37,665 nt of DNA from a virus (taxonomy: Duplodnaviria > Heunggongvirae > Uroviricota > Caudoviricetes). Position 1 is the first letter of the stretch, and every line of letters begins with the position of its first letter. The DNA lies in IMG/VR virus record IMGVR_UViG_2675903324_000015, positions 1-37,665 of that record. The stretch is one strand, 5' to 3'. Below the pieces are notes generated by a model. That model saw nothing but the letters and a program-made list of their open reading frames with translations. It ran no database searches and was not told the DNA's origin. Both the position numbers and the translations under genes were made by a program. Positions 4,646 through 35,045 of the stretch are shown here, in pieces.

Positions 4646-5164
4646 TTGAAAACCATGTTTGATTACCAAGTTTCCAAACATCCACATTTTGATGAAGCCT
4701 GTCGTGCATTTGCACTGCGCCACAATCTGGTGCAACTGGCAGAACGTGCAGGCATGAATGTGCAGATTCTGCGGAACAAGCTGAACCCAGCTCAGCCTCA
4801 TTTATTAACCGCACCAGAAATCTGGCTGCTTACCGATCTGACTGAAGATTCAACGCTGGTAGATGGTTTTCTGGCACAGATTCATTGTCTGCCATGTGTA
4901 CCGATTAATGAGGTGGCAAAAGAGAAACTGCCACATTACGTCATGAGTGCAACCGCAGAGATCGGGCGTGTTGCTGCAGGTGCGGTGTCTGGCGATGTAA
5001 AAACCTGTGCCGGTCGTCGTGATGCTATCAGCAGCATTAACTCTGTAACACGACTGATGGCGCTGGCGGCTGTTTCATTGCAGGCCCGTTTACAGGCTAA
5101 TCCTGCGATGGCGAGTGCAGTTGATACCGTGACTGGCCTCGGTGCTTCATTCGGTTTGCTGTGA
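4646..5164 (+). CDS. cII: CII-like lysogeny establishment activator (186 CII family), 172 aa
   Basis: Translation closely matches my recollection of phage 186 CII ([19 protein letters not shown]...AGMNVQ.LRNKLNP...[27 protein letters not shown]). Confidence 0.8.
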
Positions 5165-5372: not shown

Positions 5373-5677
5373 GCCCCGGTGAACGCCTGAATGGACTTAA
5401 TCATATTGCGGAATTAAGAGCGAAAGTTTTTGGCCTGAATATTGAGTCAGAGCTTGAGCGGTTTATTAAAGATATGCGTGATCCACGGGATATCAATAAT
5501 GAACAAAATAAACGGGCACTGGCTGCCATATTCTTTATGGCAAAAATTCCAGCTGAACGTCATAGCATCAGCATTAATGAGCTGACCACTGACGAAAAGC
5601 GGGAGCTGATTAAAGCAATGAATCATTTTCGTGCAGTGGTGAGCTTATTTCCCAGACGGCTAACCATGCCGAATTAA
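5336..5677 (+). CDS. Hypothetical early protein (113 aa), at the position of 186 dhr
   Basis: ORF in the early operon; no recognisable motif. Confidence 0.4.
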   Translation: MAIEGAAATVPLSPGERLNGLNHIAELRAKVFGLNIESELERFIKDMRDPRDINNEQNKRALAAIFFMAKIPAERHSISINELTTDEKRELIKAMNHFRAVVSLFPRRLTMPN

Positions 5678-5744
5678 CCAACTAATGAAATTCATGGCGT
5701 AAACCCGCCAGGCATCCCTTTATCTAAATTCAGGAGAATTGATT

Positions 5745-5978
5745 ATGCGTAATATTGAAACCCTCACGACTAAAACCGGACCGGATGATGCAGGGCTTAA
5801 TATTTTACTGACAGAGGCTCGTCTGGAAGAACGCCGGGCAAGGGCTGAAGCAATGGCAGCTCGCCTTGATAGCCTGGCGTGTCATATCACATCCCGCCAG
5901 CTAAACCACGTCGAAGCGGCAGAACTGCTGCGTGTGACTGCTGAAGCAATCCAGAACGAAGCGCAGGAGATCCACTGA
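5745..5978 (+). CDS. Hypothetical early protein (77 aa)
   Basis: CAGGAG RBS 8 nt upstream of ATG at 5745; stop overlaps the next start. Confidence 0.45.
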   Translation: MRNIETLTTKTGPDDAGLNILLTEARLEERRARAEAMAARLDSLACHITSRQLNHVEAAELLRVTAEAIQNEAQEIH

Positions 5979-6205
5979 TGGCTGATGCAATGGATCTCGT
6001 ACAGCAGCGCGTTGAAGAAGAACGCCAGCGTCATATCCGTGCTGCCCGCGCCAAAACGCCGGGCGTATCCCGCGTGCTTTGCATTGAGTGTGAAGCACCA
6101 ATTCCGCCAGCACGACGTCGCGCCATTCCGGGTGTGCAGCTTTGCATTACCTGTCAGGAAATCGCAGAGCTGAAAGGCAAACATTACAACGGAGGTGCTG
6201 TATGA
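5978..6205 (+). CDS. TraR/DksA-family C4 zinc-finger protein (75 aa)
   Basis: CxxC...CxxC pattern (CIECEAPIP...CITCQE). Confidence 0.6.
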   Translation: MADAMDLVQQRVEEERQRHIRAARAKTPGVSRVLCIECEAPIPPARRRAIPGVQLCITCQEIAELKGKHYNGGAV

Positions 6206-7050
6206 GCACCATCCTGAAATGGGCGGGTAATAAAACCGCCATTATGCCAGAACTGAAAAAATACCTTCCTGCTGGCCCGCGACTGGTTGAACCTTTCGCG
6301 GGTTCTTGTGCTGTGATGATAGAGACGGATTACCCCAGCTATCTTGTTGCGGATATTAATCCTGATTTAATCAACTTCTATAAAAAGGTTGCTGCTGATT
6401 GCGAGGCGTTTATATCTCGTGCCAGAGCTTTATTTGAGGAAGCAAACAGGGAGGTGGCTTATTACAACATAAGGCAGGAGTTTAATTACTCCACTGAAAT
6501 TACTGATTTCATGAAAGCGGTATATTTCCTGTATCTCAATCGTCATGGTTACCGTGGGTTATGTCGCTATAACAAGAGCGGGCATTTCAACATTCCCTAC
6601 GGGAATTATAAAAATCCGTATTTCCCTGAAAAAGAAATTCGCAAATTTGCAGAAAAAGCCCAGCGAGCAACGTTTATCTGCGCCAGCTTTGATGAAACGC
6701 TGGCGATGTTGAAGGCGGGGGATGTGGTGTATTGCGATCCGCCTTATGACGGTACGTTTTCCGGCTATCACACTGATGGCTTCACTGAGGATGACCAGTA
6801 TCACCTGGCATCCGTTCTTGAACATCGATCATCTGAAGGTCATCCGGTCATTGTTTCTAACAGTGACACATCCCTGATTCGTTCGCTGTATCGCAATTTC
6901 ACTCACCACTACATCAAGGCAAAACGCAGCATTGGCGTGTCAGCTGGCGAGAGTAAATCTGCAACAGAAATCATTGCCACCAAATCAGCTGGGGGGTTTG
7001 GTGTCGATTTTGCCAGCGGCTCTGACCGTACCGTTGAGGTACGCGCATGA
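6202..7050 (+). CDS. DNA N6-adenine methyltransferase (Dam-like), 282 aa
   Basis: Motif I FAGSCAV and motif IV DPPY ([10 protein letters not shown]); GGAGG RBS before ATG at 6202. Confidence 0.85.
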
Positions 7051-8057
7051 ATGCTATCGATCCGCGTTGCTTTGCCTCAGGCACCATTAACGTCATCAAT
7101 ACTTCTGGTGGCAAAGATAGTCTCGCTCAATGGCTAAGAGCCATTGAAAACGATGTTCCGCATATTTCTGTATTTGCCGATACGGGTCATGAACATCCAC
7201 AGACAATAGAATATCTGGATTATCTGGAATCAAAGCTGGGCAAGATTATTCGCGTCAAAGCGGATTTCACACGCCAGATAGAAGGGAAACGTAAATTCAT
7301 TGCGGAAAAGTGGCCCATTTCTCTCGTTGAGGAATGTGGTATGTCGACAGATGAGGCTGAGGAACGTATTTACCGGGCACTGGAAATCCTTAAACCAACC
7401 GGCGTTCCGTTTCTTGATTTGTGCATGTGGAAAGGTCGCTTCCCTTCAACAAAAGCTCGTTTCTGCACTTTTGAACTGAAACATGAACCAATACGTACAC
7501 AGGTAATCGATCCAGCTCTGGATGAATACGATGAGGTAATCAGCTGGCAAGGAGTCCGGGGGCAGGAATCACCGGAACGTGCATTGTTGCCTGAGTGGGA
7601 GGACGATGCAGACAATACTCTGGGGCTGCATGTTTATCGTCCGATCCTTAATTGGCTGCATGAGGATGTGTTTGCTATTGCCAAACGTCATGGCATTAAG
7701 CCTAACCCCCTTTATATGCAGGGATGCAGTCGTGTCGGTTGTATGCCATGCATTCATGCTCGCAAGTCAGAACTTGGAGAGATTTTCCAACGCTGGCCAG
7801 AAGAAATCCGCCGAGTGGCTGAGTGGGAAAGACTGGTTGCGGAATGTTCAAGACGTGGCAATTCAACGTTCTTTCCATCCACGCATGATCCGCGCCGTGC
7901 TGAAAAACGGATCGAAGTCATAACTGTTGATGCTTATGGCATTGAAACTTATCGGGACTGGGCCTTAACGACTCGGGGCGGTATGCAGTTTGACCTGCTG
8001 GCAGGCATGAATGATAAAGCGGTGTGCAGCAGTGTATATGCAGGAGTCTGTGAGTGA
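7047..8057 (+). CDS. PAPS-reductase / ATP-pyrophosphatase-like protein (336 aa)
   Basis: N-terminal PP-loop motif SGGKDS; Cys-rich C-terminal region ([10 protein letters not shown]); start overlaps the Dam stop. Confidence 0.65.
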
Positions 8058-10495
8058 CAGAGATCAGCACAGGCCGTCTTGCCGCTCCATTTGTCAGTGT
8101 AACTTCCGGTAGCATTGAGAATTCTGCCGGGGGTTATTCGTGGAATTTACCTAAGAAAGCCATTAACCCTTATCTGGACCCGGCGGAAGTTGCGCCGGTT
8201 TCTGCGCTTTCAAACCTGATCACTCTGTACGCTACCGATAACGAGCAGGAACAACTGCGCCGCGAGGCACTGAGTGATCAGGTCTGGGAGCGTTATTTCT
8301 TTAATGAATCCCGTGATCCTGTCCAGCGCGAAATGGAGCAGGATAAGCTCATTAGCCGGGCAAAGTTGGCGCATGAGCAGCAGCGTTTTAACCCGGACAT
8401 GGTCATTCTGGCAGACGTCAGCGCCCAGCCCTCCCATATCAGCAAGCCGCTGATGCAACGTATTGAATACTTCAGCAGCCTGGGCAGGCCAAAGGCTTAT
8501 TCCCGCTATTTACGTGAGACGATTAAGCCATGTCTGGAACGACTGGAGCATGTACGCGACAGTCAGCTATCCACTTCTTTTCGCTTTATGGCAAGCCATG
8601 AAGGGCTGGACGGCCTGCTAATCCTGCCTGAAATGAGTCAGGATCAGGTGAAACGCCTGTCCACCCTGGTAGCTGCGCATATGAGCATGTGCCTTGATGC
8701 AGCTTGTGGCGATTTGTATGCCACCGATGATGTTAAGCCAGAAGAAATCCGCAAGACATGGGAAAAGGTGGCAGCAGAAACCCTGCGTCTGGATGTCATC
8801 CCGCCTGCGTTTGAGCAACTCCGTAGGAAAAGAAAGCGCCGTAAACCAGTGCCCTATGAACTCATTCCGGGTTCGCTGGCGCGTATGCTGTGCGCCGACT
8901 GGTGGTATCGGAAATTGTGGAAGATGCGTTGCGAATGGCGGGAAGAGCAGTTGCGTGCTGTCTGCCTGGTCAGCAAAAAAGCATCTCCCTATGTCAGCTA
9001 TGAAGCCGTGATGCATAAACGTGAGCAGCGCCGTAAGTCGCTGGAGTTTTTCCGTTCTCATGAACTGGTGAACGAAGACGGCGACACGCTGGATATGGAA
9101 GATGTGGTAAACGCCAGTAGTAGCAACCCGGCGCATCGCCGCAATGAGATGATGGCATGTGTTAAAGGTCTGGAGCTTATCGCGGAAATGCGCGGTGACT
9201 GCGCCGTTTTCTACACCATCACCTGTCCGTCACGTTTCCATTCCACGCTAAATAACGGCAGGCCCAACCCGACCTGGACAAATGCGACGGTAAGACAAAG
9301 CAGTGATTATCTGGTCGGCATGTTTGCTGCATTTCGTAAGGCGATGCACAAAGCCGGATTGCGCTGGTATGGCGTGCGGGTGGCTGAGCCGCATCATGAC
9401 GGTACAGTTCACTGGCACCTGTTGTGTTTTATGCGCAAAAAAGATCGCCGCGCCATTACTGCTTTGTTGCGTAAGTTTGCCATTCGTGAAGACCGCGAGG
9501 AGCTGGGTAATAACACAGGACCACGCTTTAAGTCTGAGTTGATTAACCCGCGCAAAGGTACGCCAACAAGCTACATCGCGAAATACATCAGTAAGAACAT
9601 TGACGGGCGTGGTCTGGCTGGCGAGATCAGCAAGGAAACGGGTAAATCCCTGCGTGATAACGCTGAATACGTTAATGCCTGGGCGTCTCTGCATCGTGTT
9701 CAGCAATTCCGCTTCTTTGGTATTCCAGGGCGTCAGGCTTACCGTGAACTGCGGTTGTTGGCTGGTCAGGCGGCAAGGCAGCAGGGTGACAAAAAAGCAG
9801 GTGCGCCGGTACTGGATAACCCGCGCCTTGATGCAATCCTGGCTGCTGCTGATGCTGGCTGTTTTGCCACCTACATTATGAGGCAGGGCGGCGTGCTGGT
9901 TCCTCGCAAATATCACTTGATCAGAACCGCTTATGAAATCAATGAAGAGCCGACCGCCTATGGCGATCACGGTATTCGTATTTATGGCATCTGGTCACCC
10001 ATTGCAGAGGGCAAGATCTGCACTCATGCAGTGAAGTGGAAAATGGTTCGTAAAGCCGTTGACGTTCAGGAGGCGGCAGCCGACCAGGGCGCTTGCGCCC
10101 CTTGGACTCGTGGCAATAACTGTCCCCTTGCTGAAAATTTGAACCAACAAGGGAAAGACAAATCAGCTGATGGGGATACTAGGACGGACATTACCCGCAT
10201 GGATGACAAGGAGTTGCACGATTACCTGCACAGTATGAGCAAAAAAGAGCGCCGGGAACTGGCTGCAAGGTTACGCCTGGTGAAACCGAAACGGCGTAAA
10301 GACTACAAACAGCGAATTACAGACCATCAGCGACAGCAGCTCGTCTATGAACTGAAGTCCAGAGGATTTAATGGCAGCGAGAAAGAGGTCGATTTACTCC
10401 TTCGCGGCGGCAGTATTCCGTCAGGAGCAGGCCTGCGTATCTTCTATCGGAACCAGCGTTTGCAGGAAGATGATAAGTGGCGAAACCTGTATTAA
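8054..10495 (+). CDS. A: Replication initiation protein A (rolling-circle nicking endonuclease, P2 gpA family), 813 aa
   Basis: HUH-type motif VHWHLLCF and nearby YIAKYISK tyrosine motif; size and position; GTG start. Confidence 0.85.
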
Positions 10496-12157: not shown

Positions 12158-12733
12158 ATGCTTTTACCCGTAAGTGTTACATCGTGTGGCTTGTATCACC
12201 CCTACTGGCATTTGGGAGAGCGCAACCCTCATAGCGATGAACTATCAAGGCAGATGATGGATTTTAAGGATGAAAATAATCGTAATCATCAAAGGGCTAT
12301 TAACCGTTTTTCTCGATTAGCTATAGATAAGGTTGGGCGGTTAGTAATCAGAGGTGGCGGTGGGCGTTTTGTTGAGTCTCCTTTTTCGATAGCAGTCGTC
12401 CCGTCTCACACTGAAGGCAGAATTTCACCGGCTTTGATTGAGGTCGCCGAGCGAATCGTAAATGTTCACCGTCGGGGCATTGTTGATTGCTGTTTGGAAA
12501 GAACACGCACTGTTCCTAGCGCACATCGTGAAGGAGGCGATCGCTCAATTACTGGTCACATGTCTAGTATCAGAGTTAGGGGTGGTAACCTCATGGGGCG
12601 AAATGTGTTACTACTAGATGATGTTAAAACAACAGGCGGTAGTTTGTCTGCGTGTTTTTATTTACTGGAGTCTGCAGGAGCTGGAGTTATAATGCCATTA
12701 GCTCTGCTAGAAACTGCAAACTATGAGGAGTAG
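12158..12733 (+). CDS. Phosphoribosyltransferase (PRTase, ComF-like) domain protein; true start may be internal
   Basis: Canonical PRPP-binding motif VLLLDDVKTTGGSL near the C-terminus. Confidence 0.75.
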   Translation: MLLPVSVTSCGLYHPYWHLGERNPHSDELSRQMMDFKDENNRNHQRAINRFSRLAIDKVGRLVIRGGGGRFVESPFSIAVVPSHTEGRISPALIEVAERIVNVHRRGIVDCCLERTRTVPSAHREGGDRSITGHMSSIRVRGGNLMGRNVLLLDDVKTTGGSLSACFYLLESAGAGVIMPLALLETANYEE

Positions 12734-13697
12734 CAAAGTGCACTCAGAAGAATTAAAAAATACACTTGGATTAGCTATTCAAATCGGGAAGCTAGCATCT
12801 GATCAAAGTGTATTGAAATTCTTTGAGCTTATTGATTTTGATGTTATTCGTGATATACGCGACTTAACTGAGATGGTTAATAGCCACGGGTTTCTAAAAG
12901 ATAAAATATCTGAGACTGATTTTCTAATAGCGAACGCTGAATTGGAGAACCACCATGTTAATGGTGTGGAGCTAATACCATATGGGTCTGAATTCTATCC
13001 TCTTAGTTTAGCGTTTACTCCTAATCCACCATCAATTCTCTACATAAAAGGGGATAAAAGTATACTAAAAGAATTGCCGGGTGTCGCAATTGTAGGATCC
13101 CGTGATACTTCCCCTGCAGGGGAAGAAATAACGAGGCGAATCACTAATCAGATAGTGTCTGCTGGGTATATTGTTGTAAGTGGGTTAGCAATAGGCACTG
13201 ATGCGAATGCTCATAAGGCAACGTTACAAGCAAAAGGAAAAACCATTGCTGTCTTGGCGCATGGTCTTGAGGAGGCTAAGCCGAAGCAAAACAGTCGACT
13301 TGCTCAAGAGATTCTGGATAAAGGTGGTGCATGGATTTCTGAGTATCCTATGGGTCGACCGGCCCAGAAACAATCATTTGTACAAAGAAATCGGATACAA
13401 GTTGGATTATCTGCAGGTTCAATTTTAATCGAGGCTGCGTTAAATAGCGGAACGATAACTCAAGCTGAGTTTGCAAATAAGGCGAAAAGACCAGTGTTTG
13501 CGGTTGTACCTCACCTACCTAATAATCCGCTTAATCTTAATTGTGAGGGAACAGTTGATTTAGTTAAGAGCAACATGGCTAGAGCGTTAAAAACAAAACG
13601 GGATTATGATGATGTGATTATGATCATAAATGAGTCTCGGGAGTATTTGTTAGAGCTAAAATGGCCAGGGAAACAGAGTACATTAGACTTGATTTAA
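12723..13697 (+). CDS. DprA/Smf-like (SLOG Rossmann-fold) protein, 324 aa; alternative GTG start at 12738
   Basis: DprA-type signature GVAIVGSRDTSP...GLAIGTDANAH...KTIAVLAHGLE...ISEYPMG...QRNRIQVGLS...PVFAV; overlaps the PRTase gene. Confidence 0.75.
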   Translation: MRSSKVHSEELKNTLGLAIQIGKLASDQSVLKFFELIDFDVIRDIRDLTEMVNSHGFLKDKISETDFLIANAELENHHVNGVELIPYGSEFYPLSLAFTPNPPSILYIKGDKSILKELPGVAIVGSRDTSPAGEEITRRITNQIVSAGYIVVSGLAIGTDANAHKATLQAKGKTIAVLAHGLEEAKPKQNSRLAQEILDKGGAWISEYPMGRPAQKQSFVQRNRIQVGLSAGSILIEAALNSGTITQAEFANKAKRPVFAVVPHLPNNPLNLNCEGTVDLVKSNMARALKTKRDYDDVIMIINESREYLLELKWPGKQSTLDLI

Positions 13698-13721: not shown

Positions 13722-14750
13722 CTAAATTTGATATCTCTCGAATTTTATAATTTCTTCACCGCTCCAATGATTAAATTCTTTCATTCTTTTTTGTAATGGT
13801 AATAATTCATTTTTCACAAAGACCTTACTAGCTTTTTCTACATCCCCAAATCCCCCAACATTATTAGGCATTATCCCCATCATCTGTGGCGGAACGCGAT
13901 GTGCTGCCATCATGTCATCCCGGCTCACGTTCTTGATATTTAGAAACTCATCCTTCGCCGCGACTTCTGACAACGGGATAATCTGAAGCCCGTCCTTTTT
14001 GCCGTTCGGCGAGTACATAAACAGGTTACGGAAGTTGCCTGGTCCTTTGGCGCTTTTCATTGCGTTGCGGAGGTTGTTTACATCCTCCTGGTTCTGCGCG
14101 GCATCGGTCATGTACATGATGAAGCCTGCATGACTACCGTTAATGTAATACTTGCGGCGGAACAGCGTGGCGGATTCGTTGAGCAGGGCTGACGGAATGG
14201 CAGAAAGATAACCGGGCAGGCCGTAGATCTCCTGGTTGATGTCCGGTTCCATCAGATGAAAGATGCTGCCTTTCGTGAACTGATACGGCTGGGTTGTCAT
14301 ACCGTATTGCACAAACCAGTAGGTATCCAGGTCTAATCCGCGTCGGGTGTATTTTGCCAGCGCAGGTTCAAGGGCGATCACTTCACCGAAGCGGTTCGTG
14401 CGTTTCTCCAGATAGGCGTTGCCAAATACCAGATAGTCCTGCACAAAACGCGAAAAAGCTTGCTGGCTGAGCAGAGGATGAGGGATATAGGTACTGGTCA
14501 GAATGTTGCACTTTACTGCAATCGGGGAACTGTGATGCACGGCAGCGCGGAAGGTGCGCGCCAGTCCGTCAAAGCTGACGGGCGGCTCATACCAACGGTC
14601 CATCTGTACGCATTCCACATAGTCCAGTAATTCTCGGCGGTCCAGAACAGGAACGGGATCGCCGAAGCTGAATGCTTCGGCTGAAGTTTGGTTTTTATGC
14701 TGGATCTGATTCGTCGCCGCAGTGCGGTTTTTCTTACTCTTTCCCATCAA
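13722..14750 (-). CDS. Q: Portal protein (P2 gpQ family), 342 aa
   Basis: Size, position, 4-nt overlap with the terminase gene. Confidence 0.8.
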   Translation of the reverse strand: MMGKSKKNRTAATNQIQHKNQTSAEAFSFGDPVPVLDRRELLDYVECVQMDRWYEPPVSFDGLARTFRAAVHHSSPIAVKCNILTSTYIPHPLLSQQAFSRFVQDYLVFGNAYLEKRTNRFGEVIALEPALAKYTRRGLDLDTYWFVQYGMTTQPYQFTKGSIFHLMEPDINQEIYGLPGYLSAIPSALLNESATLFRRKYYINGSHAGFIMYMTDAAQNQEDVNNLRNAMKSAKGPGNFRNLFMYSPNGKKDGLQIIPLSEVAAKDEFLNIKNVSRDDMMAAHRVPPQMMGIMPNNVGGFGDVEKASKVFVKNELLPLQKRMKEFNHWSGEEIIKFERYQI

Positions 14751-16513
14751 AAAATCTCCACAATATTGCTGGTATTGGCGGACTCGCCCTGCAGCGGTTC
14801 GTTAAACAGTGCGTGCATCGTTGCCCAGGCCAGATCGGCGTGGCTGGCTTCTTCGCTGCGGCTGGCTTCATAGGTTGGGCGGTTGCCACTGGCGGTGGTT
14901 GCGCGACGGATTGCCATGAATGACTGCGCAATGTCGATGTGCCCGGCGTCAAACTCCAGACGGCGGTGGCTGATAATGTCGTAGGCCTTGAGTACCAGGG
15001 CGTTTTTAACGTTGGGGTTGTAGACAAACTCCCGGACGGCAGGAAAGAACGCTTTCACGTTCTCGTAAACCCCGTGACCAACGCCGGTTGAGTCGATACC
15101 GATATAAGTCACGTTGTACTGCTCGGTAAGTTTTTTGATGGCGTCAGCCTGGGCGCGGAAGTCCATCCCGCGCCACTGGTGACGCTCAAGAATGCGGAAC
15201 TTACCACCCGGCACGGCTGGCGGTGCCACCACCACGCATCCGGCGCTGTCGCCGTTTTGCGTACCTTTTGCCGGGTCATAACCGATCCACACTTCGCGCC
15301 AGCCAAACGGGCGCAGCGCCAGTGCATGAAAGTCGGTCCAGATTTCCCAGCTGTCAACCATGCACGCCTGCAGCTCGCTGAGAGGGAACACGGACGCGAG
15401 ATCGTCCACAAACTCGCACATCAGCAGGTTCTGGTATTCGTCCGGGCTGTACTCCATGCGCAACTGGTCAAGGTCGAACAGGTTACAGCCGCCGCGCACC
15501 GCATCTTCCACGGTGACTATCTGGCGGTATTACCCGTCTGCGCACAGCAGGCCGGGGGCCAGATTGCTGTGGGACAGGTCGATGTCCACCTTATCGGCTT
15601 TGTTGCGCCCACGGTTGAACAGCGCACCGGACCAGAACGGATAAGCACTGTGTGTCAGACTGGATGGCGTGGAAAAATAGGTTTGTCGCCATTTTTTGTG
15701 AATAGCCATACCGGAAGCCACTTTGCGCAGCTCCTGGAATTTCGGTATCCAGAAATATTCATCCAGATACAGGTTTCCGTGGTAACTCTGGGCCGTGCGG
15801 GCATTGGTGCCGAGGAAGTAAAGCGTGGCCCCGTTAGGAAGCACCATCGGATCGCCTTTCAGCTCCACCTCCACTTCTTTGGCAAAGTCGATGATGTACT
15901 GTTTAAAGACGTGAGCCTGAGCCTTGCTGGCAGAAAGGAAAATCTGGTTACGCCCGGTCAGCAGGGCGTCAATCAGGGCTTCACGGGCAAAGTAAAAGGT
16001 CGCGCCGATCTGGCGAGACTTCAGCAGGTTGCGGATGCGATTGGTTTTTCCGGCTTCCCACCAGTGGCGCTGGTAGTTGAACATGGAGGAATGGAAGATT
16101 TCTTCCAGCTTCTCAATCTGTTCATCGGTGAAAACATTCTTTTCCGGCTGACGGCGCGGGCCTTTGTTGCGGTTGGCGACGTTAGGGTTTAAGTCGGCTT
16201 CGTTGCCGCCATTGTTAAACTTGCCGATGCGCGCGTGGCGCTCCGACTGGCGCGCCAGCAGGTCAATCTCTTTGAAATCTTTCCCTTCTTTGTGCTCCTT
16301 CATAATGAGCTGGCAGTAGCGTGCGGCGGTGGTGAGCTGCATCTGATCCAGCGGCCCATAGTCACCCCACTTGTCGCGTTTTTTCCAGCTATGAACGGTT
16401 GCAACTTTCTCGCCCAGCATTTCAGCAATGCGGGCGACGCGGTATCCCTGAAAGTACAGCAGCATGGCCTGCCGACGGGGATCGAGATCTGCGGGTGTCA
16501 GTGTGGTGTTCAT
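14747..16513 (-). pseudogene. P: Terminase large (ATPase) subunit, P2 gpP family, interrupted by an in-frame TAA at 15530-15532
   Basis: Two ORFs (15530-16513 and 14747-15511) in the same frame, separated only by one ochre codon; 589 codons total. Confidence 0.75.
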
Positions 16514-34832: not shown

Positions 34833-34890
34833 TCGTTAAAAAACAGTGCTTCTAACCTCATGATTTTAAATAGAATAAATTTTAGGCAAC

Positions 34891-34933
34891 AAAAAACCCA
34901 TCAACCTTGAACCGAAATGGCGGGGTTGATGGG
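34891..34933 (-). terminator. Intrinsic terminator hairpin on the minus strand, about 110 bp downstream of ybjL
   Basis: 10-bp inverted repeat CCCATCAACC/GGTTGATGGG followed on the minus strand by TTTTTT. Confidence 0.45.
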
Positions 34934-35045
34934 CTCCACAAAATGGGGACATCAAAGAAAAGCAGTGGCACTAATTAAGACTGATGCCCTGCGGAAAAGT
35001 TCTGCGGTTGTGCAAAAAAATTTCATTTTCAGGGCAACTTCAGTT

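Follow-up and report, generated by a model that had tools for sequence, protein, structure and literature searches.

The 37,665-nucleotide stretch of viral DNA analyzed here, hereafter the window, belongs to a Fels-2/186-type P2-like prophage of E. coli, and the two genes under study sit in front of the replication gene A in its early lytic operon, which CI represses. A Pfam profile search of the operon ORFs gave the gene order CII, DUF5347, DUF2732, TraR, Dam, PAPS-like gene, and A, and all the features described below are on the plus strand. The TraR/DksA-type zinc-finger gene (5978-6205; Pfam zf-dskA_traR, 3.1e-11) ends in an ATGA in which its stop codon overlaps the start of dam (6202-7050), an orphan gene for a 282-aa Dam-family (D12 class) N6-adenine DNA methyltransferase whose start, ATG 6202, is preceded by GGAGG. 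The dam stop codon in turn overlaps the start of the PAPS-like gene through a second ATGA (7047-7050), with a GAGG 7 nt upstream. This gene (7047-8057) encodes a 336-aa DndC/SspD-like PP-loop protein with a PAPS_reduct domain and Fe-S-type cysteines, and its stop overlaps the GTG start of gene A as GTGA (8054-8057), with AGGAG upstream. Gene A (8054-10495) encodes a rolling-circle nickase (Phage_GPA, 1.3e-127), and its start at 8054 confirmed a preliminary description of this DNA, which had placed both genes in the early operon just before the replication gene.

Overlaps of 4 bases were found at each junction along the TraR-dam-PAPS-A chain, and DUF2732 and TraR overlap by 1 base; the dam/PAPS overlap therefore reflects how the operon as a whole is built and marks no special link between the two genes. 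The same description had presented them as a coupled pair: the ATGA overlap is real and suggests translational coupling across the dam/PAPS junction, but it is common to the junctions of this operon. Through such shared stop and start codons, the translation of all the genes in the chain would be linked. The GTGA overlap between the PAPS-like gene and A matches the arrangement annotated in the phage 186 record, and among 80 related loci the longest A ORF began at the PAPS stop or a little before it in most cases, and at the exact 4-base overlap in about half. According to the phage 186 record, translating orf84, the counterpart of the PAPS-like gene, to its end appears to be needed for A translation, and a terminator inside A acts if A is untranslated; on this precedent, the Orf84-to-A link would gate the synthesis of the replication protein too.

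A promoter and terminator scan of positions 5600-8500 gave no more sites than shuffled sequence, and a window-wide search returned no Rfam match at the locus. The dam gene lies between TraR/DksA and the PAPS-like gene and has no restriction endonuclease gene beside it. Among the operon neighbors from CII to A, there was no co-located P-loop NTPase (DndD, SspC, BrxC) or DNA-binding partner (DndE, SspB, DUF4007); similarly, no ParB-like gene was found in this operon, and no further sulfate-assimilation genes were found nearby.

The Dam-type methyltransferase and the mosaic cassette

The dam product matched Pfam MethyltransfD12 (PF02086) with 3.3e-77 and 260.1 bits against a threshold of 22, and the TIGR00571 'dam' model with 324.6 bits against a cut-off of 114.85. 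Its top PADLOC model was that of an orphan methyltransferase (2.6e-110), and it aligned end to end with the E. coli Dam structure 2g1p (4.6e-73). In the alignment to E. coli Dam, the SAM-binding motif I EPFAGS (aa 30-35, 6289-6306) stands against EPFVGAG of the host enzyme, and the catalytic motif IV DPPY was placed at aa 179-182 (6736-6747). The DPPY adenine methyltransferase reported earlier was thus upheld as a Dam family member by PF02086, TIGR00571, and motif IV, and on these matches the protein is classed among the D12-class N6-adenine DNA methyltransferases, i.e., as an ordinary Dam-type DNA methylase. The equivalog model of the host Dam, NF008152, gave 286.2 bits, below its cut-off of 441; the gene is a phage paralog and not the chromosomal dam.

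In the alignment, the prophage enzyme keeps the E. coli Dam residues K9, Y119, L122, R124, P134, and Y138 but has R in place of N120 and N in place of R137. N120 and R137 count among the DNA-contact positions of E. coli Dam, most of which are kept, and the two substitutions make the GATC specificity of the prophage Dam uncertain. The window contains 134 GATC sites versus 147 expected, i.e., there is no depletion, and so the GATC content carries no signal on Dam.

The distribution of the two genes was then compared. The dam allele was present in 1,239 E. coli genomes and the structural genes of the same prophage lineage in 1,234, while the PAPS allele was found in 24, with dam and PAPS contiguous in 24. 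The PAPS-like gene occurs in ~2% of the prophage lineage, where dam is essentially universal, showing that dam is resident and that the PAPS-like gene is a rare add-on. A blastn comparison with Salmonella phage RE2010 delimited a mosaic cassette of 1.18 kb (6975-8155), made of the last ~24 dam codons, the PAPS-like gene in full, and ~34 codons from the start of A. RE2010 is homologous over 5900-6974 (95.6%) and 8156-8400 (98.0%), and it has 155 bp in place of the segment between; the PAPS-like gene arrived on this recombinational cassette. At the nucleotide level, dam of RE2010 and of a Klebsiella prophage, both of them P2-like elements of the Fels-2/RE2010 type, is 95-99% identical to the prophage dam, but the last 24 residues of Dam in the dam-only relatives differ from those of the prophage enzyme because of the cassette junction.

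In the closest phages, dam joins A directly via the same ATGA overlap, with no PAPS-like gene, whereas phage 186 and many of its relatives carry the PAPS-like gene and lack dam. The gene upstream of PAPS in 80 related IMG/VR loci was Dam in 27, an Orf83-like gene in 17, and TraR/DksA directly in 13, the rest having others; a ParB-like gene lay within 1.1 kb upstream of the PAPS gene in 5 of the 80. The two genes are, therefore, separately swappable accessory parts in a variable slot between the TraR/DksA gene and A. Since dam is near-universal in the lineage, any gene inserted before A would adjoin it, and with PAPS in ~2% of the lineage, we dropped adjacency to dam as a sign of a functional link. 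The pairing seen in this window is incidental: it came about as mosaic recombination filled a cargo slot, and it does not represent a new two-enzyme system.

The PP-loop protein and its relation to known families

The PAPS-like protein matched Pfam PAPS_reduct (PF01507) with 1.2e-33, above the gathering threshold, and its fold matches the superfamily. Conservation was assessed in an alignment of 75 homologs at 43-90% identity. It showed a canonical PP-loop, the ATP pyrophosphatase motif SGGKDS (aa 20-25, 7104-7121), in which S20, G22, K23, D24, and S25 are invariant and G21 is at least 90% conserved; in the profile alignment, this motif stands opposite the degenerate SSSFGIQ of CysH. The intact loop would serve ATP-dependent adenylation. 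Candidate Fe-S ligands were found at C126 and C140 (LDLC ... RFCT, 7422-7466), the latter invariant and the former at least 90% conserved, and at C232-x-x-C235 (GCMPC, 7740-7751), which is invariant and aligns with the [4Fe-4S] ligand motif GCxPC of the APS reductases 2goy and 7lhr. Together, these residues suggest a four-cysteine site like the one by which APS reductases bind their [4Fe-4S] cluster. Two more cysteines, C327 and C335 (8025-8051), are invariant on a C-terminal tail that was modelled at lower confidence, and they could relay sulfur. The C-terminal sequence is ...VYAGVCE, against a family consensus of ...CSSxYGLCE, and ~150 residues, comprising a helical insertion and a C-terminal domain, lie outside the coverage of any solved relative. 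The SGGKDS loop and Cys cluster noticed previously were, thus, corroborated by an intact PP-loop and five invariant cysteines among the 75 homologs.

Phage 186 Orf84 (CP84, NP_052288) is 80.8% identical to the PAPS-like protein over 99% of its length. Its gene, too, comes last ahead of A in the same early lytic operon, its stop overlapping the A start by the same 4 bases; the genes upstream of it are Orf82 (exonuclease-like) and Orf83 (DUF5405), with no dam. On this basis, the PAPS-like protein is assigned as the ortholog of Orf84. The phage 186 record describes Orf84 as 'not essential' and of unknown function, in agreement with the earlier remark that the second component is poorly characterized.

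The name PAPS reductase was found to be misleading for this protein. Models of CysH and of PAPS and APS reductases scored far below their cut-offs (NF002537, 63 versus 154; TIGR00434, 36.2 versus 165.1; TIGR02057, 35.9 versus 254.2; TIGR02055, 47.8 versus 235.3). The ECG(L/I)H motif at the C-terminus of CysH and APS reductases carries the catalytic cysteine; the ECGLH of CysH is absent here, and the PP-loop is canonical, not degenerate. The label PAPS-reductase-like used in the preliminary description holds at the level of the PAPS_reduct superfamily, but not for CysH, PAPS, or APS reductases, whose curated cut-offs were not reached.

When the protein was compared with defense models, its best match was SspD (5e-23), followed by BrxP and DndC (PADLOC), and the best stretch of the SspD match spanned profile positions 71-202 of 277. 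The C126-C140 region is common to the SspD, BrxP, and DndC models, and the likeness to these proteins extends from the PP-loop domain through the C126-C140-to-CxxC region. A bona fide DndC was rejected, as TIGR03183 gave 17.1 bits against a cut-off of 290.4 and the PADLOC DndC match (3e-6) covered aa 133-211 only. The conserved PP-loop, the invariant cysteines, the SspD match, and the sub-cut-off CysH scores collectively argue for an active DndC/SspD-like enzyme and not a CysH, and it would fall in that branch of the PAPS-reductase (adenine nucleotide alpha-hydrolase) superfamily which includes DndC, SspD, and BrxP. DndC is reported to be an Fe-S protein and to act as an ATP pyrophosphatase. 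The systems of DndC, SspD, and BrxP include DndD/E, SspB/C, and BrxC, whereas the PAPS-like gene is phage-borne and stands alone, with none of these and no cysteine desulfurase.

A 414-aa relative from phage phi458 shared 33% identity over 96% of the length and is annotated as a transcriptional regulator. IbrA/IbrB and YbdN/YbdM are pairs of a PAPS-reductase-like protein with a ParB-like partner; a ParB-HTH gene also lies beside the PAPS-like family in phiE125 and within 1.1 kb of it in 5 P2-like loci, but, in contrast to IbrA/IbrB-type pairs, there is no ParB-like partner in this window, and the PRK06850 model gave the PAPS-like protein 22 bits, with a cut-off of 536.

Methyltransferase neighbors across phages

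The PAPS-like family comprises thousands of homologs, forming 2,273 clusters at 50% identity (E-value up to 0.001), and its methyltransferase partners come from at least five families, i.e., D12, N6_N4, MT-A70, PF05869 Dam, and C5. In phiE125, an N6_N4 methyltransferase overlaps the PAPS-like gene by 4 bases, and a ParB-like gene lies downstream; in Rivra, the PAPS-like gene is flanked by an MT-A70 and a second methyltransferase; in Parlo, a PF05869 Dam is two genes away; and in Alfacinha1 and S1, methylases are found at a distance of 2-3 genes. In 79 diverse IMG/VR loci, the immediate neighbor was a C5 methylase in 10, an N6_N4 methyltransferase in 1, and Mom in 1. Methyltransferases located within 4 kb of PAPS-like genes tended to be close, 14 out of 17 being no more than 1.1 kb away (binomial 4e-6 against a uniform spread, a test that ignores kinship among loci). 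Seed-based detection showed no methyltransferase near the PAPS-like gene in ~80% of the diverse loci, and because this detection in fetched loci is less sensitive than Pfam, the neighborhood frequencies are lower bounds.

Fusions were also observed. In a clade of ~17 proteins of ~460-563 aa, the majority of them full-length with 552-563 aa, the N-terminus is a DNA methyltransferase domain that contains an NPPF motif (phrog_799, 3e-50). Among the 150 best 50%-identity representatives, a single methyltransferase-fused architecture was seen (P0257), and the other long proteins in that set had no recognizable extra Pfam domain. We read the PAPS-like family and the methyltransferases as a loose anti-restriction or DNA-modification gene guild. 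The ~80% of diverse loci in which no methyltransferase was detected nearby weigh against this reading.

The experimental precedent comes from Vibrio, where a sister vibriophage that was given two lineage-specific genes grew on a Dnd-carrying host; one of the two encodes a PAPS-domain/Dam fusion, and as they were moved together, the effect cannot be pinned on the PAPS domain itself (bioRxiv 10.1101/2021.05.05.442762). The fusion protein, p0018 of the Vibrio crassostreae podophage 44E38.1, resembles this locus in that a phage unites a PAPS-reductase-type domain with an N6-adenine methyltransferase. It differs in being a single chain of 479 aa, in which the PAPS domain is short (aa 4-175) and the Dam is of the PF05869 type, whereas the prophage has two genes, encoding the full-length 336-aa PAPS-like protein and a D12-class Dam. 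This is the only experimental link between a protein of this kind and a phenotype, and by analogy it may extend to the PAPS-like protein if the assumed subfamily kinship holds. Phage PAPS reductases have been put forward elsewhere as anti-defense candidates.

Possible roles of the two genes

Most likely, both genes help phage DNA past host restriction systems, and we give an even chance to the possibility that they do so as two independent accessory genes working in parallel, each aiding escape from host restriction or defense. From its family, Dam is predicted to methylate GATC on phage DNA once the lytic operon switches on, so that during rapid replication this DNA would stay fully methylated and could not be attacked by GATC-type restriction. 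E. coli hosts already own Dam, and thus a phage GATC methylase is not obviously required for protection there. The PAPS-like protein may act on DNA or on the host phosphorothioation machinery in early infection, and this action would allow escape from phosphorothioate-based defense (Dnd, Ssp, BREX type 4), with the vibriophage PAPS-Dam fusion as the model. Both proteins would be parallel guild members that form no obligate complex. A lone DndC-like enzyme with no NTPase partner has no evident means of defeating Dnd or Ssp; in addition, dnd is found in ~4% and ssp in ~3% of genomes, and such uncommon systems sit uneasily with the very widespread PAPS-like family. The suggestion in the preliminary description of a DNA-modification or anti-restriction module survived as a general idea, given the family members beside methyltransferases, the fusions, and the escape of the vibriophage from Dnd, but a dedicated two-component module appears unlikely, as the genes occur separately.

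Such a module would be obligate, both enzymes targeting the same DNA sites, with Dam recognizing the sequence and the PP-loop enzyme adding or completing a second modification, neither being fully functional alone. The ATGA overlap of dam and PAPS, the recurrence of the family beside methyltransferases, often with a 4-base overlap, and the known fusions with a methyltransferase domain at either end are consistent with it. However, in backbones that are nearly identical each gene is often found alone, anything inserted before A in this lineage adjoins dam by default, and partners drawn from at least five unrelated methyltransferase families argue against one co-evolved complex, so that we consider this arrangement unlikely.

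It is similarly improbable that the PAPS-like protein modifies DNA autonomously, as a lone PP-loop/Fe-S enzyme that uses the host cysteine desulfurase IscS to install a phosphorothioate or a thiolated base as a self-made protective mark, rather than interfering with a host system. The conservation of the PP-loop, the four-cysteine site, and the tail cysteines points in this direction, as do a fold related to TtuA- and NcsA-type Fe-S thiolases, the DNA-modification enzymes encoded by nearby genes, and an expression just ahead of replication. Against this, all four established phosphorothioation systems require a PAPS-domain protein and a P-loop NTPase, and none of the latter is found in the operon; moreover, a literature search found no such mark reported in the DNA of phage 186 or P2-like phages. 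The proposal can be stated for the whole Orf84-like family, which might be a single-protein DNA sulfur-modification enzyme working with ATP, its own Fe-S cluster, and host IscS, with no partner of the DndD/E or SspB/C type, and with adjoining or fused methyltransferases or ParB-like proteins selecting the sites. We hold this version to be a long shot; if true, DNA sulfur modification would gain a fifth, minimal pathway, and the many kinds of methyltransferase neighbor of the family would be explained.

A mainly regulatory role appears doubtful as well. The ORF would be either a translated leader that gates A or an IbrA-like co-activator of prophage genes acting with a ParB-like partner. In the phage 186 record, A translation is tied to orf84 translation and there is a terminator in A, and the 4-base overlap with A, annotated in 186, was seen again in about half of the related loci. 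In phiE125 the family has a ParB-HTH gene beside it, in the 5 P2-like loci such a gene is no more than 1.1 kb away, and the phi458 relative bears its regulator annotation. Nevertheless, the operon has no ParB-like gene, and the dam-only relatives couple A straight to dam by ATGA, indicating that no special leader is needed. The length of 336 aa, the invariant catalytic motifs, and the thousands of homologs in unrelated phages with no A following them underline selection for an enzymatic function.

Finally, an auxiliary metabolic gene, i.e., a true CysH boosting assimilatory sulfate reduction in the infected cell, is scarcely credible: several phage records label the gene cysH, PHROGs assigns phrog_424 to the category 'moron, auxiliary metabolic gene', and CysH and APS reductases are the nearest solved folds, but the curated CysH/PAPS/APS models scored 3- to 7-fold under their cut-offs and covered region 143-251 only, and the canonical SGGKDS, the ...GVCE end with no ECGLH, the ~150 extra residues, and the lack of sulfate-assimilation neighbors all contradict it. 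The ortholog in the tractable coliphage 186 and the presence of the gene in E. coli prophages make its function directly testable, including the defeat of phosphorothioate-based immunity. Genes labelled 'PAPS reductase' or 'cysH' are very common in phages, and virome studies routinely tally them as auxiliary genes of sulfur metabolism. The canonical PP-loop, the Fe-S-type cysteines, and the missing ECGLH indicate that the PAPS-like branch is distinct from CysH; a DNA-modification or anti-defense enzyme is the more likely identity. The neighbors of this branch include DNA methyltransferases, Mom, and ParB-like genes, and some of its members are fused to a methyltransferase.

The early operon and its Dam-family methyltransferase

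The window consists of a P2-like prophage plus some chromosomal flank, and its early lytic operon contains, in order, the CII gene (4646-5164), DUF5347, DUF2732, a TraR/DksA zinc-finger gene directly upstream of dam (5978-6205), dam itself (6202-7050), the PAPS-like gene (7047-8057) and the replication gene A (8054-10495). In E. coli CE0026f, a prophage of the same type beside rcdA carries a copy of dam and the PAPS-like gene that is 98.5% identical, and its RefSeq annotation gives the same early genes. The preliminary description had proposed a Dam-like methyltransferase coupled translationally to a PAPS-reductase-like enzyme, possibly as a two-part module. Both genes are real, and their identities are close to those proposed.

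The dam product (282 aa) is a Dam-family, D12-class N6-adenine methyltransferase with motif I (EPFAGS) and a DPPY motif. It matched PF02086 (3.3e-77) and TIGR00571 (324.6 bits; cut-off 114.85), and E. coli Dam structures aligned with it end to end (4.6e-73). Its score of 286 against the host Dam equivalog was under the cut-off of 441, the top PADLOC model was 'orphan methyltransferase', and no nuclease gene adjoins it. Most DNA-contact residues of E. coli Dam were retained in the alignment (K9, Y119, L122, R124, P134 and Y138), and two were altered (N120 to R and R137 to N). Because most of these contacts are kept, GATC is the likely specificity.

The overlap also proved to be real, with ATGA at 7047-7050 common to the end of dam and the start of the PAPS-like gene, but it was not peculiar to this junction. 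TraR and dam are likewise joined by ATGA, the PAPS-like gene and A by GTGA with AGGAG 7 nt upstream, a single base is shared by DUF2732 and TraR, and in relatives with dam only, ATGA joins dam to A. Since the TraR-dam, PAPS-like gene-A and dam-A junctions use the same device, the overlap is a feature of the whole operon and is no evidence for or against a partnership of Dam with the PAPS-like protein in particular. The RefSeq/PGAP start of A in a near-identical prophage (locus L166, 10913) is an ATT 60 nt downstream of the GTG (window 8114 versus 8054). The GTG at 8054 has the AGGAG as Shine-Dalgarno sequence and gives the same 4-base overlap as the phage 186 annotation. Read from this codon, A showed no conservation with Salmonella phage RE2010 over its first ~26 residues.

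Distribution of dam and the PAPS-like gene

In the closest phages, Klebsiella prophages (98.8%) and RE2010 (95.9%), dam is followed directly by A. Homology to RE2010 ended at 6974 and restarted at 8156, and the 1.18-kb cassette thus delimited contains the last ~24 codons of dam, the whole PAPS-like gene and the 5' end of A (~34 codons), in place of which RE2010 has 155 bp. The left edge of the cassette (6975-8155) falls exactly at a 9-bp stem-loop with a T-rich tail (6978-7003, + strand), located in the 3'-terminal part of dam; in a scan, such sites were no more numerous than in shuffled sequence, and this one may be due to chance.

The dam allele was found in 1,239 of 5,426 complete E. coli genomes and the structural-module stretch of this lineage (portal and terminase genes) in 1,234, whereas the allele of the PAPS-like gene, at 95% identity or more, was present in 24, contiguous with dam in 24, and a 186-type version (~73%) occurred in 14 further genomes. 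By these counts, dam is resident in the prophage lineage and the PAPS-like gene is a rare insertion before A. We also surveyed the upstream neighbours in 80 IMG/VR relatives, whose PAPS-like products were 72-100% identical. The immediate upstream gene was a Dam in 27, from widely differing lineages (38-96% identical to the window Dam), an Orf83-like gene in 17 and TraR/DksA in 13; the remainder included DUF3850/ASCH proteins and an Rv2179c-like exonuclease. The two genes are not a unit in this lineage. Given the dam-only relatives and the E. coli counts, the pair came about incidentally, when cassettes were exchanged in a cargo slot.

The Orf84-type enzyme and its family

The PAPS-like gene encodes a PAPS_reduct-domain protein of 336 aa (1.2e-33) that shares 80.8% identity, across 99% of its length, with the phage 186 protein Orf84. 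In the phage 186 record, Orf84 is entered as 'unknown function; not essential'; our literature search found nothing on its function. Across 75 aligned sequences (43-90% identity), five PP-loop residues (S20, G22, K23, D24 and S25) and five cysteines (C140, C232, C235, C327 and C335) were invariant, with G21 and C126 at least 90% conserved; C232-x-x-C235 aligned with the GCxPC of 2goy and 7lhr, two APS reductases that contain Fe-S. The best defence-system model was SspD (5e-23), followed by BrxP (7.5e-12) and DndC (3e-6), the DndC equivalog giving 17 bits where its cut-off is 290. We read this pattern as that of a putatively active ATP-pyrophosphatase-type enzyme from the superfamily's DNA-modification branch, with a predicted Fe-S site; its tail is a possible sulfur relay.

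Methyltransferases recur near homologs elsewhere. In Burkholderia phage phiE125, the homolog shares a 4-base overlap with an N6_N4 methyltransferase gene; in Agrobacterium phage Rivra, it lies between an MT-A70 gene and a second methyltransferase, and here too the genes overlap; Serratia phage Parlo has a PF05869 Dam two genes away, and Acidovorax phage Alfacinha1 and Stenotrophomonas phage S1 have methylases 2-3 genes away. None is annotated near the homolog in Riah, phi458 and 186. Across a diverse set of 79 IMG/VR loci, which form 24 clusters at 70% identity and whose neighbours were typed by Pfam, the immediate neighbour was a C5 methylase in 10, and an N6_N4 methylase, Mom, a ParB domain or an SRA domain in one each. 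A cruder seed-based search placed a methyltransferase within 4 kb in 17 of the 79, and 14 of these 17 were within 1.1 kb (binomial P 4e-6 versus a uniform spread, relatedness ignored; 7 of the 24 clusters involved). Moreover, in a fusion clade of ~17 clusters (P0257, P0389-P0404; about 460-563 aa, most 552-563), an N-terminal DNA methyltransferase domain with DPGCGKG and NPPF motifs (phrog_799, 3e-50) precedes a full-length Orf84-type domain, and one member is from the Vibrio sp. HA2012 chromosome; the family otherwise consists of stand-alone proteins of about 300-340 aa. The link to DNA modification is thus real at the family level.

A precedent comes from a Vibrio crassostreae podophage, two lineage-specific genes of which, one encoding a PAPS domain fused to Dam, were moved into a sister phage; with both genes, this then grew on a Dnd-carrying host, and the authors spoke of an anti-Dnd system that they linked at least partly to the PAPS domain (bioRxiv 10.1101/2021.05.05.442762). 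Phage PAPS reductases, as predicted homologs of DndC/SspD, are named among the candidate anti-defence genes in a 2026 survey of operons associated with anti-CRISPRs. The best-supported reading is that the genes provide two functions, parallel to each other, in anti-restriction or DNA modification, both expressed shortly before replication: the resident orphan Dam would provide the first and the rare Orf84-type, DndC/SspD-like enzyme the second, probably by acting against phosphorothioate-based defence.

An obligate two-component module of Dam and the PAPS-like enzyme would suit the fusion clade, and it is unlikely here, where relatives carry dam alone. Autonomous DNA sulfur modification by the lone PAPS-like enzyme is just as improbable: established phosphorothioation requires a PAPS-domain protein and a P-loop NTPase, but the early operon of the window has no such NTPase partner. 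Slightly less probable still is a mainly regulatory role, in keeping with the phage 186 record, according to which translation of A appears to need translation to the end of orf84, and set against the invariant PP-loop and cysteines. A true CysH is effectively excluded: four curated CysH/PAPS-reductase/APS-reductase models scored 3- to 7-fold under their cut-offs and matched residues 143-251 only, the PP-loop is a canonical SGGKDS where the CysH motif is degenerate, and the C-terminus (...GVCE) has no ECGLH motif.

In 5 of the 80 P2-like loci (L037, L042, L047, L050 and L051), a ParB-HTH gene is found upstream of the PAPS-like gene, within 1.1 kb and in fact within about 0.5 kb; in 3 of them it directly adjoins the PAPS-like gene. 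In phiE125, such a gene follows just downstream of the homolog (L002, 4019-4840). This arrangement recalls the IbrA/IbrB-type pairing of a PAPS-reductase-like protein with a ParB-like partner.

Other features of the prophage

At its right end, the window extends into host chromosome, since a full-length RybB sRNA gene, rybB (34888-34966, - strand; Rfam RF00110, 105 bits), lies there; in CE0026f, rcdA adjoins the integrase end of a prophage of this type. The 589-codon gene for the large terminase (gpP-like; 14747-16513, - strand) is interrupted in frame by a stop at codon 328 (...LLCADG*YRQIV...), which may reflect a defective prophage or a sequencing error. A ShosTA-like defence pair of overlapping ORFs (12158-12733 and 12723-13697, both + strand), with PRTase-like and DprA-like products (PADLOC: ShosT 3.6e-14, ShosA 2.8e-70), occupies the P2 cargo slot that separates A from the portal gene; the otherwise near-identical CE0026f prophage has other, hypothetical genes in this slot. 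The GC content was 46.3% for dam and 48.0% for the PAPS-like gene, versus 52.6% for A and 55.7% for the portal/terminase stretch, and these somewhat lower values fit accessory cargo. Over the whole window, CTAG was strongly depleted (15 sites versus 147 expected), GTAC, TCGA and GGCC were at about half of expectation, GCGC was in excess, and GATC was near expectation (134 versus 147).
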